This document shows, piece after piece, positions 4,765-37,744 of a DNA stretch of 37,744 nucleotides. This stretch comes from a virus (lineage: Duplodnaviria > Heunggongvirae > Uroviricota > Caudoviricetes). Below the pieces are notes generated by a model, which did not search any database, was not told the DNA's origin, and saw only the letters and a program-made list of their open reading frames with translations. Each line of letters starts with the position of its first letter. The first letter of the stretch is position 1. The translations under genes and the position numbers were made by a program. The stretch is from the IMG/VR virus record IMGVR_UViG_2541047956_000006. One strand, 5' to 3'.

Positions 4765-5028
4765 ATGGCAAAGGTAATTATTGAAATTAAAAATACAGTA
4801 TCTGGAATTAAAGGACGGAATTTGCGCACCAGCATTGCGGTGGACGGTAGTGCGGAACTGGACGGTGATGAGGGGACACTTGCTGGCATGGTGGCGTTAC
4901 TGGTGCTTAATAAAAGCCAGAAAATAATTAATGAGTCAGCCCATGAAGCTATTGAGATTTTGAAAAACGATGGTGTCATCACAGGTGGCAGTGTCACTGA
5001 AATGGCTGTTGAAAAAACATGTCACTGA
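4765..5028 (+). CDS. Hypothetical early protein
   Basis: 87 aa ORF with RBS AAGGAGAAATAAA upstream; tightly packed in early operon. Confidence 0.6.
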   Translation: MAKVIIEIKNTVSGIKGRNLRTSIAVDGSAELDGDEGTLAGMVALLVLNKSQKIINESAHEAIEILKNDGVITGGSVTEMAVEKTCH

Positions 5029-5462
5029 AAGGAACGCTGACAATGAACGTCAAAATCCGAAATGAAATTCAGGCATTAATCCGAATTCAGGAACGCAATA
5101 ACAACGGTGGTGAATTACGCGAGTTTATTTGCACCCGGAAAGTTGATGATTGTGGTGAAAAGACGTACCTGATCGCTTTCGACCATTACAGCATCTGTGC
5201 GCGTTATTGCGGCGAAAGCATATCCCGCGCCATTGCATTTGGCGGTGCGTTCAACGTGGATTTATGGGAGTACGTCATGGACCGGGAATACATCTGCGCA
5301 TCAGACCCTGAAGCCCGTGAAATGTGGCAGCGTATCTGGCGCGATTACCGGTTAATGGCAAAAGGCTGGGCGCGCTGCTGTTATTCCTCACTTGCCCTGA
5401 AAGCGGTTCAGTTATCGCTGCGGCATATTCCGGCATCACTGCGCGAGCCTCTGCTGTACTGA
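5019..5462 (+). CDS. Hypothetical early protein (start 5019 or 5043)
   Basis: 147 aa ORF; alternative ATG at 5043 has a better-spaced AGGA. Confidence 0.6.
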   Translation: MSLKGTLTMNVKIRNEIQALIRIQERNNNGGELREFICTRKVDDCGEKTYLIAFDHYSICARYCGESISRAIAFGGAFNVDLWEYVMDREYICASDPEAREMWQRIWRDYRLMAKGWARCCYSSLALKAVQLSLRHIPASLREPLLY

Positions 5463-6306: not shown

Positions 6307-6404
6307 TACCACCATTAATATTTAATTAATTCACATTCTTTTAATTATGGCGCGATGCGTCAGGGGATTGCTCGCGCCTGAAACAGATTACTGAGGAATA
6401 AAAC

Positions 6405-7465: not shown

Positions 7466-7634
7466 AACATCGTATTCGTGGCTGGGGAAATTTACCACGG
7501 TGAAACAGGAATGCCCGACCTGCGGTAATGAATCCCCTGAATATCTGAAAGAGTGCCCTCATTGTGGCGGGCAGAAATGTAACCACTGCGATATGGGCGA
7601 TGACACGGCGTGCATGAATTGTGAAGGTGAGTGA
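7452..7634 (+). CDS. Small zinc-finger-like protein (four CxxC pairs)
   Basis: 60 aa with CPTC, CPHC, CNHC, CMNC. Confidence 0.55.
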   Translation: MENNETSYSWLGKFTTVKQECPTCGNESPEYLKECPHCGGQKCNHCDMGDDTACMNCEGE

Positions 7635-7635
7635 C

Positions 7636-7944
7636 ATGAATAATGGTGTATTTTCAAAATCAGAAGAGCTTGCCGCCCTGCTGATTGCCGGTGGTTTGCC
7701 GAAAAAAGAAGTGCATGACTTTGTGAATTTTGTATATGAGCCGTCTCATGAAAAAGCTATTGATGAGGTCATGGCGTACCGGTTTGGCATTATTGCTGAG
7801 TCACTGAGTCCTCACTGGATTATTGAAAATCTCCGCGCTATTGCTGATGGCAACGATAAATCAGCAGCCGTTGCTGCACTGGATGTGTTACGGCAAATGA
7901 GTCTGAAATTTTATCCTGAATTTATTCTGAGGGCCGCAAAATGA
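7636..7944 (+). CDS. Hypothetical early protein
   Basis: 102 aa from ATG 7636 with RBS AAGGTGAG; track start 7621 is a GTG overlapping the previous gene. Confidence 0.6.
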   Translation: MNNGVFSKSEELAALLIAGGLPKKEVHDFVNFVYEPSHEKAIDEVMAYRFGIIAESLSPHWIIENLRAIADGNDKSAAVAALDVLRQMSLKFYPEFILRAAK

Positions 7945-8243
7945 ACAATGAAGATAAATTTACTCCCCTTAATATTGATAACGTCATGGCTGAAAAAGGG
8001 ATGCTGGAACGTGTTCGCGCTATCGTTGAATATGGTATTAAGCATAATCTCACCGCCAGAGAAGTCCGTGACATTATCAACCGCGAAATGAATCGTCTGG
8101 AAACAGTAGTGGCACTGCAAAATGAAACAGCCCGCGAGGAGTACATCCGCCGCAGGCTGGGGTTATCAGACCAGGATATTGTTACTGACGCTCATGTGTT
8201 TGAGGCTTTTGAGATCCGTCAGCATCTGGGTCTAACGAACTGA
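7941..8243 (+). CDS. Hypothetical early protein
   Basis: 100 aa; start overlaps previous stop (ATGA). Confidence 0.6.
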   Translation: MNNEDKFTPLNIDNVMAEKGMLERVRAIVEYGIKHNLTAREVRDIINREMNRLETVVALQNETAREEYIRRRLGLSDQDIVTDAHVFEAFEIRQHLGLTN

Positions 8244-8448
8244 TAATGTCTTCCATGATCTTTGACAGTTGCATGTTTTCGCGGCGGCTTGTTCTTATTG
8301 CAGGCGCATCTTTTAAAATCTCTGCTGAAGAGCTGAAAATGGCCTGGCCCTCTTCTGCGGTGATGATCGCCTTCTTCACCAGAAGGCGCACCAGTGCTGA
8401 TGCAATCGCATAACCTGCAACATCATAAGGTTGTACATTATTTTCCAT
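8182..8448 (-). CDS. Candidate antisense small protein (88 aa), unknown function
   Basis: Fills the largest plus-strand coding gap in the prophage (8244..8517); ATG at 8448 preceded by GAGAGGA with ~4-nt spacing; balanced, helix-like composition. Confidence 0.35.
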   Translation of the reverse strand: MENNVQPYDVAGYAIASALVRLLVKKAIITAEEGQAIFSSSAEILKDAPAIRTSRRENMQLSKIMEDIISSLDPDADGSQKPQTHERQ

Positions 8449-8517
8449 AAAATCCTCTCTGATTGATGTGTAAATTCAGGCGGTGTTGCAGCACCGCCTC
8501 TTTCCGGAGGTACGATC

Positions 8518-9486: not shown

Positions 9487-9537
9487 CGCCCTCAATATTC
9501 TGTTGTGACGATAAAACGTTCATGACAGGAGGGCAAC

Positions 9538-10098
9538 ATGCCTGAGTTTTCCCCTGCATTCCTTCATTCGCTGAATTTCGTTATACGCCCTGATGTTGAA
9601 GGTGGCTATGTTAATGATCCTGCCGACCGTGGCGGCGAAACGAAATACGGTATTTCTGACCGTCGCGACGGCGTTATTGATGGCAAAACCGATGTTAACG
9701 GTGACGGAAAACCTGATACCCGCATTAAGGATTTAACCCGCGAGCAGGCGGCGCAGATCTACTGGCGTGATTACTGGCTGGCGGCAAAGTGTAACGAATG
9801 GCCTGATGGCGTTTCCTTATTCGTTTTTGATGCTGCCGTTCAGCACGGTGTTAAACGCGCGATTCAGATCCTCCAGGCGGCAGCAGGTGTTGATGATGAT
9901 GGCATCGTCGGTAAAAACACACGCGCAGCCGTTCTGCGTGCCGATACTGACTGGCTGCTGTTGCAGTGCTTCCTGCGTCGTTCCCGCTATTACGCAGGGA
10001 TTATCAAATCCAGTGCCTCGCAGGGGAAATATCTGAATGGCTGGTTTAACCGTCTGGATCTGCTCGCCAGCGCCTGTCGGGAGGTTCTGCATGGGTAA
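9538..10098 (+). CDS. GH108-like muramidase with C-terminal peptidoglycan-binding (PG_binding_3-like) region
   Basis: 186 aa; EGGYVNDPADRGGETKYGIS motif typical of GH108 N-termini; later DDDGIVGKNTRAAV resembles the PG-binding domain. Confidence 0.7.
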   Translation: MPEFSPAFLHSLNFVIRPDVEGGYVNDPADRGGETKYGISDRRDGVIDGKTDVNGDGKPDTRIKDLTREQAAQIYWRDYWLAAKCNEWPDGVSLFVFDAAVQHGVKRAIQILQAAAGVDDDGIVGKNTRAAVLRADTDWLLLQCFLRRSRYYAGIIKSSASQGKYLNGWFNRLDLLASACREVLHG

Positions 10099-31417: not shown

Positions 31418-31950
31418 CACCCTATCAGACGGCCTTTCTGCAATTACTGCCGTCAGGGCTTGCCTGGAATAAAAGCCCCGACAGCAAATTATCTGCGCTG
31501 GCGCAGGCCATCAGCGACGTGATTGCCACTGCGGCGGATGATGCGCGGCAAATGCTGCGGGAGCGTTTCCCGTCCACATCCCGCTGGTATCTGGGGGAGT
31601 GGGAATCATTTCTGGGGTTGCCTGACTGTACCAGCGAAAACGGCACCCTGTCCGAACGCCAGCGGGCTGCCGCGAATAAAATGCGTATGACCGGCAATCT
31701 GAGTCGGCGCTTTTATGAATGGCTGGCTGCGCAGTACGGTTTTACCGTCAGGCTGACGGATTCCACAGAAGGCCAGTGGGTTACGCAGGTCAATATTTAC
31801 GGTATTAAAAATTATCGCAACGCAACGGTGCTGGATAATGTTCTGACGCCGTTACGTGTTTATGAATCGGGTGCGCTGGAATGTTTACTGGAGAAATATA
31901 AACCCGCGCATCAGATTTATAAATTTGTTTACCATGACGGAGATAACTAA
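31408..31950 (+). CDS. Tail/baseplate protein preceding tail fibre
   Basis: 180 aa; position before S. Confidence 0.75.
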   Translation: MAVTPYQTAFLQLLPSGLAWNKSPDSKLSALAQAISDVIATAADDARQMLRERFPSTSRWYLGEWESFLGLPDCTSENGTLSERQRAAANKMRMTGNLSRRFYEWLAAQYGFTVRLTDSTEGQWVTQVNIYGIKNYRNATVLDNVLTPLRVYESGALECLLEKYKPAHQIYKFVYHDGDN

Positions 31951-33473
31951 TGTTTTATATTGATAACGACAGCGGCGTAACCGTCATGCCGCCCGTATCC
32001 GCCCAGCGTAGTGCTATCGTTCGCTGGTTTTCAGAAGGTGACGGGAATAATGTTATCACATGGCCCGGCATGGACTGGTTTAATATTGTGCAGGCGGAGT
32101 TATTAAACACGCTGGAAGAAGCCGGTATTCAACCGGATAAAACAAAATTAAACCAGCTTGCACTGTCCATTAAAGCCATTATGAGCAATAACGCGCTGCT
32201 GATAAAAAATAACCTCAGCGAAATTAAAACTGCCGGGGCATCAGCACAGCGTACAGCACGTGAAAATCTGGATATCTATGATGCCAGCCTGAACAAAAAA
32301 GGACTCGTTCAGCTAACCAGTGCCACTGACAGCCCCAGTGAAACGCTGGCAGCCACCGCAAAAGCGGTGAAAATTGCGATGGATAATGCCAATGCCCGTC
32401 TGGCAAAAGACCGGAACGGAGCAGATATTCCCAATAAGCCGCTGTTTATCCAAAACCTCGGTTTACAGGAAACGGTAAATCAGGCTTCTGGCGCATTACA
32501 GAAAAACCAGAACGGCGCAGATATTCCCGATAAAAAACTATTCCTGCGTAATATCGGCACAACAAATTCAACAACCATGTCTTTTAGTGGTGGTGCTGGA
32601 TGGTTCAAACTGGCAACTGTAACAATGCCACAAGCCAGTTCCGTGGTTTACATAAGCCTGATTGGTGGCGCAGGGTTTAACGTTGGCTCCCCGCATCAAG
32701 CAGGCATCTCTGAGCTGGTTCTGCGTGCCGGAAATGGAAATCCAAAAGGTATTACTGGTGCATTATGGCGACGGACCTCGGTTGGATTTACTAATTTTGC
32801 ATGGGTGAATACATCCGGTGATACCTATGATGTTTATGTTGAAATAGGTAATTACGCCACAGGTGTTAATATTCAGTGGGATTATACCAGTAACGCCAGC
32901 GTAACGATTCATACATCACCAACTTATACAGCGAATAAACCAACAGGCCTGACAGATGGAACTGTATATGTAATTTACAGTTCGCACATTAAACCGACAG
33001 CTGCTGAGGTTGGGGCGTTGTCATTATCTGGCGGTCAATTGAATGGTGCACTGGGCATCGGAACATCCAGTGCTCTTGGTGGTAACTCGATTGTTTTGGG
33101 TGATAATGACACGGGATTTAAACAAAATGGCGACGGGTATCTGGATGTTTATGCTAATAACGTCCATGTTATGCGCTTTGTCTCCGGCAGTATTCAAAGT
33201 AATAAAACCATAAATATTACAGGTCGTGTTAATCCCTCAGATTACGGTAACTTTGATTCCCGTTATGTGAAAGATGTTCGACTTGGTTCACAGCAATATT
33301 ATGGCGTGAAAAACTGGCAAACATGGAATTTCCAGTGCCCGTCAGGTCATGTATTGACTGGTATTAATGTTCAGGATACAGGGTCCAATTCTGCCGATAA
33401 TATAGCGGGCGTTTATTACAGACCCGTTCAAAAGTATATAAATGGCACCTGGTATAATGTAGCGAGCGTTTAA
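31950..33473 (+). CDS. S: Tail fibre protein S (constant part plus currently expressed variable part)
   Basis: 507 aa; the left gix inverted repeat lies inside the gene at 32446..32494, marking the constant/variable junction. Confidence 0.9.
32446..32494. repeat. Left inverted repeat of G segment containing gixL (26-mer at 32446..32471)
   Basis: TTATCCAAAACCTCGGTTTACAGGAA...; reverse complement present at 35483..35531 with 2 mismatches over 49 bp. Confidence 0.85.
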
Positions 33474-33474
33474 T

Positions 33475-34002
33475 ATGATGCACTTAAAGAACATAAAAGC
33501 GGGTAACGCTAAAACACTGGAACAGTATGAGTTAACAAAGAAACACGGAGTTATCTGGCTTTACTCTGAGGACGGAAAAAACTGGTATGAGGAAGTGAAA
33601 AACTTTCAGCCAGACACCATAAAGATTGTTTACGATGAAAATAATATTATTGTCGCCATCACCAAAGATGCCTCCACGCTTAACCCTGAAGGTTTTAGCG
33701 TCGTTGAGGTTCCCGATATAACAACCAATCGTCGGGCCGATGATTCCGGTAAGTGGATGTTTAAGGACGGAGCTGTGGTTAAACGGATTTATACAGCTGA
33801 CGAACAGCAACAACAGGCCGAATCACAAAAGGCCGCGTTACTTTCCGAAGCAGAAAGCGTTATTCAGCCACTGGAGCGCGCTGTCAGGCTGAATATGGCG
33901 ACGGATGAGGAACGCGCACGACTGGAATCATGGGAACGCTACAGTGTTCTGGTCAGCCGTGTGGATACGGCAAATCCTGAATGGCCACAAAAGCCTGAAT
34001 AA
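33475..34002 (+). CDS. U: Tail fibre assembly protein U
   Basis: 175 aa; N-terminal ~120 aa clearly paralogous to the minus-strand ORF at 34031..34564. Confidence 0.88.
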
Positions 34003-34030
34003 AAATTAAGGCCCGATATCGGGCCTTCTC

Positions 34031-34564
34031 TCATTCTGGTTGTTCGGGAAACGTTACTGGCAGGCTGGAAGTGTCTGTAGATTCGACTTTCTGCGCAAAG
34101 AGCATCCACTCTGTTAATTTTTGTTTATTCTCGTCGGAAATGATGCCCAGCCGTAGCTGTGAGTCCCATAGCTGGGTTTTATCCCTGACAAGTTGCAACA
34201 GGCTTTGCTTTTCATTCTCTGCCTGCTGCCTCTGTTCCTCCTCGGTATAAGTTCGCTTTATCACTACGCCATCTTTGAACATCCATTTACCCGAAATATC
34301 AGCACGGCGATTTGCTGTAATATCAGGAACCTCAACGACGCTTGCGCCTTCTGGATTAATTGCTGAAACATCCTTTTCAATACAAATAATAACGCCGTTG
34401 TGGTCATAGACCATTTTCAACGTATCAGGCTGAAAGTTCTTTTGTTCCTCATACCAGTTTTTCCCATCCTCTGTATAAAGCCATTTGATGTTAAATTGTT
34501 TCGTTAGCTGGTATTGCTCTTTTGTTTTAGGGTTGCCAGCAGTAATATTTTTTAAGTGCATCAT
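34031..34564 (-). CDS. Alternative tail fibre assembly protein U'
   Basis: 177 aa, paralog of U, inside the G segment in inverted orientation. Confidence 0.85.
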   Translation of the reverse strand: MMHLKNITAGNPKTKEQYQLTKQFNIKWLYTEDGKNWYEEQKNFQPDTLKMVYDHNGVIICIEKDVSAINPEGASVVEVPDITANRRADISGKWMFKDGVVIKRTYTEEEQRQQAENEKQSLLQLVRDKTQLWDSQLRLGIISDENKQKLTEWMLFAQKVESTDTSSLPVTFPEQPE

Positions 34565-34566
34565 AA

Positions 34567-35518
34567 TTAAATACTCCCCGCGTTATACCACGTTCCATTA
34601 ATGCAATACTGAATTGGCCTTGCCTGAGTTGTATCAATTAATTCATCACGGTTTCCGTTAACTGAACCCGTAACGACATAACCTGACCTGTCAGACCAGC
34701 CGGGACCATTCCATGTCTGAACAGATGACAGACCGCCAAGGCGAATACCTGTAATAAACCTTGAGTTACATTCTGCCTGCGTGTATGCACCAACATCTCC
34801 CGCAGAGGGTTTGCGGGTTGTGGTGTAAAACTCTGACCAGTCAGCTTCAAAGCCATAACCATCACGCGCTGAACGATAAAAGATACCGCCATTTCTGTAA
34901 TTCACGCGGAACTGTACAGCAGGGCAGCTCCCCGTATTCATATTGAAGTGGAGGATTAATGTCGATGCGCCACCAATATTTGCGTTATAGACCCCGCTAT
35001 TCCAGTTCCAGCCAACAGCTTTATCATTTCCGACAGTGCTTCCTGTTTGCCCTAAAGCAAATGCAGACTGCTGGTTTTTCGTGTTGTAGTCTCGTCGCCA
35101 GCCAGGAGCATAAGCATCACCATGATTAATATAGGTGAATTGAGCGTTAGTAATTCCGCCACCGCTGGAAGTGCTCGGGGTGGTTACACGGATGGTCATG
35201 GCTCCTTTATTACCCATAACCTCAATAACGCAACCTGCAAGATGAATAGTTCCACAGCCAGTATCGGTAATAATTTTATTATTGCCGTATGACCATGAAC
35301 ATTTGCACATCCAGTATGGGTGATTGAATGCCCCTTGAGAATCCAGCCATTCAATCAATTGTGCCGTCGTCCAGTTTCCTGCACCTGTGCTAATAGCACC
35401 ATGAAAAGAGCGGCAAGCACCTATTGTTTGCGTAAATTTATCTTTGTTTGGAATATCTGCGCCATTCTGGTTTTTCTGCAACGCACCAGAAGCCTGATTT
35501 ACCGTTTCCTGTAAACCG
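34567..35518 (-). CDS. Alternative tail fibre variable C-terminal part S' (no own start; fused to the constant part of S after inversion)
   Basis: Open frame running into the right gix repeat; its first codons ([11 protein letters not shown]) repeat the sequence at the constant/variable junction of S. Track start at 35481 is a TTG. Confidence 0.8.
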
Positions 35519-35531
35519 AGGTTTTAGATAA
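35483..35531. repeat. Right inverted repeat of G segment containing gixR (26-mer at 35506..35531)
   Basis: Reverse complement of 32446..32494 with 2 mismatches. Confidence 0.85.
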
Positions 35532-35585
35532 TGGCTGTTTCCGGCCTGCATGGCATGATTTGCGCTTTTAAACGGGAGATCCAGA

Positions 35586-36167
35586 GTGCTGATTGGCTAT
35601 GTAAGGGTATCAACAAATGACCAGAATACAGACCTGCAACGAAACGCTCTTGTTTGTGCAGGATGTGAACAAATATTTGAAGATAAATTAAGCGGAACAA
35701 GGACAGACAGACCTGGATTAAAACGCGCTTTAAAGCGTCTTCAAAAAGGTGACACACTGGTTGTCTGGAAACTGGATCGCCTCGGGCGAAGCATGAAACA
35801 TTTGATTTCTCTCGTAGGGGAATTACGAGAGCGAGGGATTAATTTTCGCAGTCTTACTGACAGTATTGATACGTCATCTCCAATGGGGCGTTTTTTCTTC
35901 CACGTTATGGGTGCCCTGGCTGAGATGGAACGAGAACTAATCATCGAGAGAACGATGGCTGGACTTGCTGCTGCCAGAAATAAAGGCCGTATCGGTGGGC
36001 GACCACCTAAACTAACCAAAGCGGAATGGGAGCAGGCCGGGCGTTTATTAGCACAAGGAATCCCCCGCAAGCAGGTCGCATTGATCTACGATGTGGCCCT
36101 GTCAACGCTGTATAAAAAACACCCCGCCAAACGAACGCATATAGAAAACGACGATCGAATCAATTGA
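35586..36167 (+). CDS. gin: Gin DNA invertase (serine recombinase)
   Basis: 193 aa from GTG 35586; catalytic N-terminus LIGYVRVSTNDQ; matches Mu Gin as I recall it. Confidence 0.97.
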   Translation: MLIGYVRVSTNDQNTDLQRNALVCAGCEQIFEDKLSGTRTDRPGLKRALKRLQKGDTLVVWKLDRLGRSMKHLISLVGELRERGINFRSLTDSIDTSSPMGRFFFHVMGALAEMERELIIERTMAGLAAARNKGRIGGRPPKLTKAEWEQAGRLLAQGIPRKQVALIYDVALSTLYKKHPAKRTHIENDDRIN

Positions 36168-36261
36168 ATCGATCGGTAATACAGATCGATTATGCCCCAA
36201 TAACCACACTCAACCCACGATGTTTTTTAAGATAGTGGCGAATTGATGCAAAGGAGGTGAG
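36153..36261 (+). promoter_or_regulatory. mom promoter regulatory region with three clustered GATC (Dam) sites
   Basis: GATC at 36153, 36171 and 36184 within 35 bp, spanning the gin stop and upstream of com. Confidence 0.7.
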
Positions 36262-36450
36262 ATGAAATCAATTCGCTGTAAAAACTGCAACAAACTGTTA
36301 TTTAAGGCGGATTCCTTTGATCACATTGAAATCAGGTGTCCGCGTTGCAAACGTCACATCATAATGCTGAATGCCTGCGAGCATCCCACGGAGAAACATT
36401 GTGGGAAAAGAGAAAAAATCACGCATTCTGACGAAACCGTGCGTTATTGA
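36262..36450 (+). CDS. com: Com, zinc-finger translational activator of mom
   Basis: 62 aa with CKNC...CPRC; strong RBS AGGAGGTGAG; overlaps start of mom. Confidence 0.9.
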
Positions 36451-37096
36451 GTATGAAGGCCAGATTGTTGGCTATGGTTCAAAGGAACTGCGCGTTGAAA
36501 CCATATCCTGCTGGCTGGCCCGCACAATTATTCAGACAAAGCACTATTCCCGCCGTTTTGTGAATAACTCTTACCTCCACCTGGGAGTATTCAGCGGACG
36601 CGATCTGGTTGGCGTTCTCCAGTGGGGATATGCCCTTAACCCCAACTCAGGTCGTCGTGTCGTGCTTGAAACGGATAACCGGGGCTATATGGAGTTGAAT
36701 CGCATGTGGCTACACGACGACATGCCCCGCAACTCTGAATCACGGGCCATCAGCTACGCGCTGAAAGTTATCAGATTACTGTATCCGTCAGTGGAGTGGG
36801 TTCAGTCATTTGCTGACGAACGCTGCGGACGCGCAGGCGTTGTGTATCAGGCGTCGAATTTTGATTTTATTGGCAGCCATGAAAGCACGTTCTACGAGCT
36901 GGATGGTGAGTGGTATCACGAGATAACGATGAACGCGATTAAGCGGGGTGGACAACGAGGCGTGTATTTACGGGCTAATAAAGAGCGTGCCGTGGCGCAC
37001 AAATTTAATCAGTATCGCTACATCAGATTCCTGAACAAGCGAGCAAGGAAGCGGCTAAATACCAAACTATTCAGGGTTCAGCCATACCCTAAGTGA
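36371..37096 (+). CDS. mom: Mom DNA modification protein (start uncertain: ATG 36371 or GTG 36401)
   Basis: Last gene before right end; overlaps com in another frame. Confidence 0.85.
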
Positions 37097-37116
37097 TCCC
37101 CATGTAATGAATAAAA

Positions 37117-37140
37117 AGCAGTAATTAATACTGCTGTTTC
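37117..37140 (+). terminator. Hairpin after mom, candidate terminator
   Basis: 7-bp stem AGCAGTA / TACTGCT with 5-nt loop followed by GTTTC. Confidence 0.55.
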
Positions 37141-37211
37141 ATTTGAAGCGCGAAAGCTAAAGTTTTCGCATTTATCGTGAAACGCTTTCGCGTTTTTCGT
37201 GCGCCGCTTCA
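37141..37211 (+). promoter_or_regulatory. Right end (attR) with MuA end-binding repeats R1-R3
   Basis: GCGAAAG/CGAAAA-type repeats in both orientations; terminal ...GCGCCGCTTCA. Confidence 0.8.
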
Positions 37212-37744
37212 GCCAGCGCGTCGTCAAACACATCCTGACGGTTGGCGTATTCTTTCATTAACGAGAGATCGTTAAGCGTGCCGGAGTACAGCAACCACAG
37301 CGGAACAATGGCAATCTGCATATGCAACAACCAGCGCCACAGCGGATGCGTGGAGATTCGGCGGATGGCATCGCTACAGGCCAGCAGTGCCAGCGCCGCA
37401 GCCAGCCAGAAACCACTTCCGAGGCAGGTACGCGCCAGCGCACTACCATTTTGCGCCAGTTGTGTCGCCGCCTTTCCAGCTCCCCACACCAGCAATACGA
37501 AGACGAATTGCGCCAGAATGAGTGCAAAAATGCTGCCTTTTTTAGCGGGAATAAAACAGGCTGTCAGCCAGGCGCAACCAACGCCCACCAGCATCCAGAG
37601 AGTTTGCGGCCACAGCTGCCAGAGATGACGCCCCTCACCCGAAACTAAACGATTAGGTGCGTAACTGATAAACGGCAGCGCCGCTGCGATTGCCGTCAGC
37701 AACAGCAGCAGCGCCAGAACAGGATTAATACGGAAATAAGTCAC
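37172..37744 (-). CDS. Host integral membrane protein, 5' portion; last 13 codons come from the prophage right end (gene split by insertion). 5' end runs off the window
   Basis: Minus-strand ORF with several hydrophobic helices; frame continues across the reconstructed empty site into 33..1. Confidence 0.7.
37212..37216. repeat. Target-site duplication, right copy (GCCAG)
   Basis: Identical to 29..33. Confidence 0.85.

Follow-up and report, generated by a model that had tools for sequence, protein, structure and literature searches.

Evidence for a Mu-type invertible G segment with a common one-base site asymmetry in an Escherichia coli prophage

Introduction

The tail-fibre locus of a Mu-like prophage in the IMG/VR record IMGVR_UViG_2541047956_000006 raises the question of whether a DNA segment that was assembled in one orientation, between inverted repeats that are not quite identical, is a switch that can still turn over, and what the difference between its repeats means. 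We refer to the whole 37,744-nt stretch of this record as the window. Within it the genes run in the order Sc-gixL-Sv-U-hairpin-U'-Sv'-gixR-gin-com-mom, where Sc is the constant part of the tail-fibre gene S, Sv and Sv' are two alternative variable parts, U and U' are tail-fibre assembly chaperones, gixL and gixR are crossover sites and gin encodes a DNA invertase. We conclude, with a probability of roughly 93%, that this region is a Mu-type G segment, in which inversion of the DNA switches host range between two states. The conclusion is drawn from sequence and rests on the crossover sites, Gin, the enhancer region, the cargo and its reading frames, the presence of relatives in both orientations, the standing of the right-hand site (TTATCT) as a common allele, and the prophage context. 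The original prediction for this locus, of a host-range segment inverted by Gin at gix, was borne out wherever it could be checked: in the crossover sites, in the invertase and the enhancer-bearing start of its gene, in the division of S and in the pairing of chaperones on opposite strands; its view of the imperfect repeats needed more revision, as described below.

A split tail-fibre gene with two variable ends

The segment and its immediate flanks contain the following features:

31950-32459, plus strand: Sc, the constant N-terminal part of S, outside the segment except for the outer half of gixL
32446-32471, plus strand: gixL crossover site, TTATCCAAAACC-TC-GGTTTACAGGAA, with the central TC at 32458-32459; the same as Mu gixL
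32460-33473, plus strand: Sv, variable C-terminal part, now fused to Sc, with its frame open
33475-34002, plus strand: U, assembly chaperone for Sv, expressed in the present orientation (Pfam Caudo_TAP, E=1e-37)
34008-34027, no strand: GC-rich perfect palindrome AAGGCCCGATATCGGGCCTT, a hairpin between the convergent U and U' genes
34031-34564, minus strand: U', alternative chaperone, silent (Pfam Caudo_TAP)
34567-35517, minus strand: Sv', alternative variable part, silent, without an N-terminal part or a start codon of its own
35506-35531, minus strand: gixR crossover site, TTATCTAAAACC-TC-GGTTTACAGGAA, with the central TC at 35519-35518

The constant 5' part of the fibre gene thus lies outside the segment, and two 3' parts lie inside it on opposite strands, each followed by a gene for a Caudo_TAP chaperone. 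Sc is identical to Mu Sc at all 170 residues, carries a Pfam Phage_fiber_2 match at residues 113-153, and is covered by the PDB entry 5yvq ('Tail fiber protein S'), which matches residues 1-188 of the fibre. As assembled, the full S coding sequence (31950-33473) encodes 507 amino acids. Starting at the crossover, the silent Sv' frame runs for 316 codons without a stop; its product is 89.3% identical to Mu Sv' and contains a Pfam gp37_C domain. When inversion of the segment was simulated, Sc was joined in frame to Sv' to give an intact S' protein of 486 amino acids. In annotation, the 'partial' S' is not a pseudogene, and the orientation assembled here is only one of the two possible. Sv and Sv' have in common only their first 27 and last ~70 residues, which fits the recognition of different receptors. 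Solved structures of Mu S/U and of an S/S' fusion match the fibre and the chaperone.

The chaperones follow the same pattern. U is 92.6% identical to Mu U and matches PDB 5yvq_B ('Tail fiber assembly protein U'), and U' is 98.9% identical to Mu U'. The two proteins are 57% identical to each other (E=2e-74) and both belong to Caudo_TAP, bearing out the earlier view of them as clear paralogs on opposite strands. The palindrome that separates their genes folds at -14.9 kcal/mol (z=-3.3) and gives a terminator-like match on the minus strand; at the equivalent place in phage D108 terminators are annotated on both strands. The hairpin is likely a two-way terminator.

Crossover sites and the inverted repeat

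The segment is bounded by an inverted repeat that a repeat finder places at 32446-32534 and 35443-35531, with arms of 89 nt that are 91% complementary and 2908 nt between them. Base-by-base comparison of the arms gives eight mismatches in the 89 nt. Only two fall in the first 49 nt (C at 32451 against T at 35526, and C at 32492 against T at 35485), exactly as had been proposed for a 49-bp repeat with two differences, and nowhere does perfect complementarity extend beyond the 40 bp at 32452-32491. At the outer ends of the arms are two inverted 26-bp crossover sites, each made of two 12-bp half-sites around a shared 2-bp core. The inner half-sites and the central TC are identical in gixL and gixR, and a single base differs, in the outer half-site. 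The published native 20-bp gix core, CTGTAAACCGAGGTTTTGGA, is present in gixL on the other strand (PMC5175349).

The 26-bp site occurs at exactly two places in the window when up to three mismatches are allowed, and at none in shuffled sequence. A multi-segment system of the shufflon kind is ruled out, as both the 26-bp site (at most three mismatches) and the AAACCNNGGTTT core (at most one) give these two sites only; the arrangement is a simple one with two sites and two states.

The length of the repeat, 89 nt instead of the 34 bp of Mu, arises because both variable halves start with the same 27 residues of the Mu S' type. Of the six mismatches beyond the 26-bp site, five leave the amino acid unchanged in the S frame that both halves share, so that the repeat past about 34 bp reflects a shared protein start (23 residues) and not a longer recombination site. 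A direct repeat at 32406-32437 and 32502-32533 (88%) was also considered as a recombination site and rejected: its two copies flank gixL and encode the fibre motif K(D/N)(R/Q)NGADIP(N/D)K, and the repetition is one of protein sequence within the fibre, with one copy in Sc and one at the start of each variable half.

The Gin invertase and a candidate enhancer

To the right of the segment lie the invertase gene and a candidate enhancer within it:

35586-36167, plus strand: gin, serine DNA invertase, with a GTG start as in Mu
35631-35693, plus strand: candidate Fis-dependent recombinational enhancer, two Fis-like 15-mers at gin +46 and +94, 48 bp apart, from a motif scan

Gin is a small serine recombinase encoded beside the segment, with an N-terminal catalytic domain carrying Ser9 (MLIGYVRVS(9)TNDQ) and a C-terminal helix-turn-helix. 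Pfam identifies both domains (Resolvase, E=7e-50; HTH_7, E=2e-17), and the protein matches the PDB entries 3uj3 and 4m6f ('DNA-invertase') over its full length. The original prediction had named a defective gin as part of what would overturn it; what we find is a protein identical to Mu Gin at 192 of 193 residues.

Over its first 123 nt, gin does not differ between the window, Mu, D108 and SfMu; nucleotides 124-230 contain three changes, each shared with D108 and/or SfMu. Both Fis-like 15-mers fall in the stretch that is identical to Mu. The site that stimulates G inversion is reportedly located inside the invertase gene, by the title finding of Kahmann et al. in 1985, and the 48-bp separation of the two 15-mers is what we take to be the spacing of the Fis sites in that enhancer. 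From the motif scan and this spacing, the enhancer would probably lie at 35631-35693. By eye, a weak -10-like GATAAT can be seen overlapping gixR.

These features suggest how the switch would operate. Sc (31950-32459), outside the segment, would be transcribed together with the late tail genes, and the segment of about 3.06 kb would present Sv-U and Sv'-U' converging on the central hairpin. By homology with Mu, Gin dimers would bind both gix sites and be activated by host Fis bound to the enhancer in the 5' part of gin; Gin would then cut both sites at the central TC, rotate and religate, and the segment would flip. Cutting, rotation and religation of this kind have been described for Gin with a Fis-bound enhancer (PMC3575834). 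The present orientation would yield the Sc-Sv fibre with U expressed, and the inverted one the Sc-Sv' fibre of 486 amino acids with U' expressed. In Mu the two orientations confer different host ranges, according to van de Putte et al. 1980 as cited in PMC4406740, and by analogy those of the present segment probably would too. The rate at which it would flip, and the receptors and bacteria that each fibre would recognise, are likewise things that we infer.

Orientation of the segment in related elements

Relatives of the segment are met in both orientations, which is strong though indirect evidence for inversion. The U'-Sv' module lies opposite to that of the window in three Mu-like sequences (SfMu, Mu_3F6 and the IMG/VR contig L039), and in a further contig (L023) the entire cassette is inverted relative to a Gin-like gene. 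Of the IMG/VR contigs that share the right-hand site, 26 have a silent Sv' type and 16 an expressed one; the Sv type of the window is silent in all seven of those that carry it, the reverse of its state in the window.

The variable part that is expressed in the window is not that of Mu. The core of Sv (32528-33411, ~295 amino acids) has no nucleotide match in Mu, D108, SfMu, Mu_3F6, Tongde or PhiR68_1, and its protein resembles Mu Sv only over the first 16 and last 83 residues (52%). The cassette is nevertheless already present in public genomes. Sv is 94% identical over 759 nt to that of the Yersinia Mu-like phages vB_YpM_5, vB_YpM_6 and vB_YpM_39; a Mu-like prophage of E. coli JCKP02 is 96.2% identical over 3201 bp, covering the whole segment and both flanks; and the cassette is 96% identical to that of a 48.5-kb phage-plasmid of E. 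coli ATCC 25922 and 92-95% identical to those of P2-like prophages.

Such widespread copies raise the possibility that the arrangement in the window is an assembly artefact, a mis-join over the repeated fibre cassettes of another prophage or plasmid in the strain, given that cassettes of 92-96% identity on E. coli P2-like prophages and the phage-plasmid may confuse short-read assemblers. The arrangement from Sc to mom is, however, colinear with the independent complete genome of JCKP02 through both flanks, and the reading frames are exact over both junctions, so that we regard an artefact as extremely improbable.

The ATCC 25922 phage-plasmid offers the clearest view of an exchange. In two assemblies of it (CP158444 and CP009073) a cassette of 3.07 kb, 96% identical to that of the window, is turned opposite ways. 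Polymorphic bases in the outer half-sites remain attached to the flanks, and those in the inner half-sites move together with the cassette, so that the exchange maps to CCTCGGTTT, at the central TC. The pair demonstrates that inversion of the cassette at its sites is possible. It does not demonstrate activity of the Gin studied here, because a different invertase acts there. One of the ATCC 25922 assemblies annotates the silent half as an 'incomplete' pseudogene.

The position of this exchange also bears on how inversion is brought about. Inversion could depend mainly on RecA, by homologous recombination across the 89-bp repeats, and not on Gin at the gix core; in favour of this, the repeat, at 89 nt and 91% with a perfect run of 40 bp, is longer than the 34 bp of Mu. 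A perfect homology of 40 bp supports very rare RecA events only. Gin and the gix sites are intact, the enhancer-bearing region is present, the ATCC 25922 exchange took place at the gix core and was not spread along the repeat, and the mismatches past the core have been kept as synonymous differences and not homogenised. We consider a mainly RecA-dependent inversion very unlikely, and favour Gin acting at gix.

The C-to-T asymmetry of the right-hand site

The one base by which the two crossover sites differ alters the reading frame that runs through them:

35524-35526, minus strand: in-frame TAA within the outer half of gixR, which closes the silent fibre frame from outside

A C-to-T change converts the in-frame CAA codon of gixL into this TAA in gixR. 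In Mu, where the codon is CAA, the annotated S' fragment ORF extends 29 nt past the G boundary. The original prediction held that the TAA closes the silent S' frame in the orientation assembled here. The stop codon is real, but it is not specific to that orientation: being in the outer half-site, outside the TC crossover, it never moves and closes the silent half in both orientations. In the simulated inversion at the central TC both gix sites were regenerated unchanged, and the TAA remained beside gin, then closing the silent Sv.

The imperfection of the repeats had likewise been presented as a feature of this element. The one-base asymmetry was confirmed, but it is not special to this genome. 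The right-hand site reads TTATCT in five of the seven sequenced Mu-like phages compared (D108, SfMu, Mu_3F6, Tongde and vB_YpM_3) and TTATCC only in Mu and PhiR68_1. When IMG/VR was scanned for the right junction with either base allowed at the variant position, the T form was found in 70 of the 71 contigs that contain the junction; the same pattern had no match in a representative-genome collection, which holds one genome per species and is little informative. The idea that the TAA and the imperfect repeat are a private mutation of this genome was rejected, as they are common to most relatives. From these comparisons the asymmetry is the normal natural form of the invertase-proximal site in the group, and it should not impair recombination: the inner 12 bp of gix are reportedly important for the activity of the Gin catalytic domain (PMC5175349), and the variant base lies outside both those 12 bp and the crossover.

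In one IMG/VR contig (IMGVR_UViG_2695420708_000013) the right-junction pattern occurs twice on the same strand, at 5178-5204 and 6377-6403, a distance of 1.2 kb, possibly a sign of an inversion region that is duplicated or has several sites.

That the near-universal T, with its TAA, at the invertase-proximal site is functional and not neutral, and has been kept by selection, seems to us doubtful. If it were, one reason could be that the TAA halts translation into the silent fibre half from outside; another could be that the T (TAGATAAT on the gin strand) tunes a gin promoter or a Gin-binding overlap, and so sets the rate of flipping.

Is the switch frozen?

The asymmetry of the sites also invites the explanation that the switch is a frozen relic, blocked by its unlike gix sites, by low expression of Gin or by a damaged enhancer, and that the phage makes the Sc-Sv fibre only. 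In its favour, the authors of the SfMu study proposed that a 1-bp change in one repeat could lower or abolish inversion, and they observed no change of host range (PMC4406740). The SfMu change is of another kind from that in the window: it affects the base adjoining the central dinucleotide in gixL (AAAACG). We looked for a change of this type in the gixL of the window and found none, the site being that of Mu. The sole difference between the two sites is the majority allele outside the inner 12 bp, and Gin and the first 123 nt of its gene are essentially those of Mu. Sv' and U' are fully open, as expected if the silent half is used periodically, and relatives occur in both orientations. A consensus scan for sigma-70-like promoters upstream of gin found none at threshold, as a switch blocked for want of Gin would have it. 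The gin gene is said to be weakly expressed. On this evidence we hold a frozen switch to be improbable.

Returning to the G segment as a working switch, a few points weigh against it, the missing promoter match among them. The tolerance of Gin for the C-to-T change is deduced from the very commonness of the T form. JCKP02, the closest Mu-like relative with the same cassette, has it in the same orientation as the window. Lastly, we infer current inversion of this copy from a consensus sequence. The original prediction took the orientation to reflect the population state; the one in which a copy happens to be assembled may be near arbitrary, since induced Mu lysogens reportedly yield roughly equal numbers of G(+) and G(-) particles (PMC4406740).

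Comparison with known systems

The locus belongs to a known system, being a classic G segment of the Mu type with the widespread allele that D108 also has, and involves no new biology; its use is chiefly in annotation. The G segments of Mu (NC_000929) and D108 (NC_013594) have the same gene order from Sc to mom. The gixL site and the GTG start of gin are those of Mu, and gixR is that of D108. The window differs from Mu in that the expressed Sv is replaced by an unrelated cassette, in the length of the repeat (89 nt rather than 34 bp), and in its TTATCT right-hand site with the TAA, as in D108. As the tip of the expressed fibre is not that of Mu, host-range predictions for Mu G(+) do not transfer to it.

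Closer likenesses are found among the carriers of the same cassette. The Yersinia phages vB_YpM_5, vB_YpM_6 and vB_YpM_39 (PMC10434027) have the same Sv cassette, and JCKP02 (NZ_CP195759) has the same cassette, orientation, gixL and gixR; all of these are 4-6% divergent from the window and differ from it in host or insertion site. The P2-like prophages and the phage-plasmid of ATCC 25922 carry an Sv-U-U'-Sv' cassette of 92-96% identity that inverts at the same central TC, but there it is attached to a different and much longer constant fibre part (proteins of ~740-815 amino acids), and the outer half-sites (TTATCGAATACC and TTCGCAAAAACC), the invertase genes and the backbone differ from those of the window. 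More distant is the C segment of P1 and P7 (Cin/cix), where P1 matches U-U'-Sv' at ~91%. The occurrence of the same 3-kb cassette across Mu-like phages, P2-like phages and phage-plasmids illustrates how receptor-binding modules are exchanged as units that bring their inversion sites with them.

The prophage and its setting

The segment lies in a complete Mu/D108-like prophage that occupies positions 34-37211 of the window. Its left end begins with TGTATTG at 34 and its right end finishes with CGCTTCA at 37211, in the TG...CA manner of Mu, and a 5-bp target duplication, GCCAG, flanks it at 29-33 and 37212-37216; these ends and the duplication are the signature of Mu transposition. From 34 to 25000 the window is 96.5% identical to D108 across 93% of the length, the whole is colinear with D108 except for five small blocks, and 33411-37211 is colinear with Mu G(+) at 93%. 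By its ends, its 5-bp duplication and its colinearity with Mu and D108, this is a prophage of the Muvirus type.

The insertion interrupts yehY, an E. coli gene for a glycine betaine ABC transporter permease. The flanking yehY DNA is 100% identical to that of strains of the Nissle, ATCC 25922 and CFT073 group, and the insertion junction itself was not found among the complete E. coli genomes of the collection searched.

A few observations concern other parts of the prophage. The right end past mom (37093-37211) matches Mu and SfMu and not D108, which has an extra 'D108-specific protein 56' at that place; with a right end like those of Mu and SfMu and a left part like that of D108, the genome is a mosaic. 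In the early, semi-essential region the blocks 7646-8478 and 4798-5027 lack a D108 match, and the ORFs at 7621-7944 (plus strand), 7941-8243 (plus strand) and 8182-8448 (minus strand) have no Pfam match; these blocks could hold accessory or anti-defence cargo. The block 9504-10089, also absent from D108, contains an ORF on the plus strand (9538-10098, 186 amino acids) whose product has the domains Glyco_hydro_108 and PG_binding_3; this is a second gene of lysozyme type, directly downstream of mor, the usual lys being present as well.

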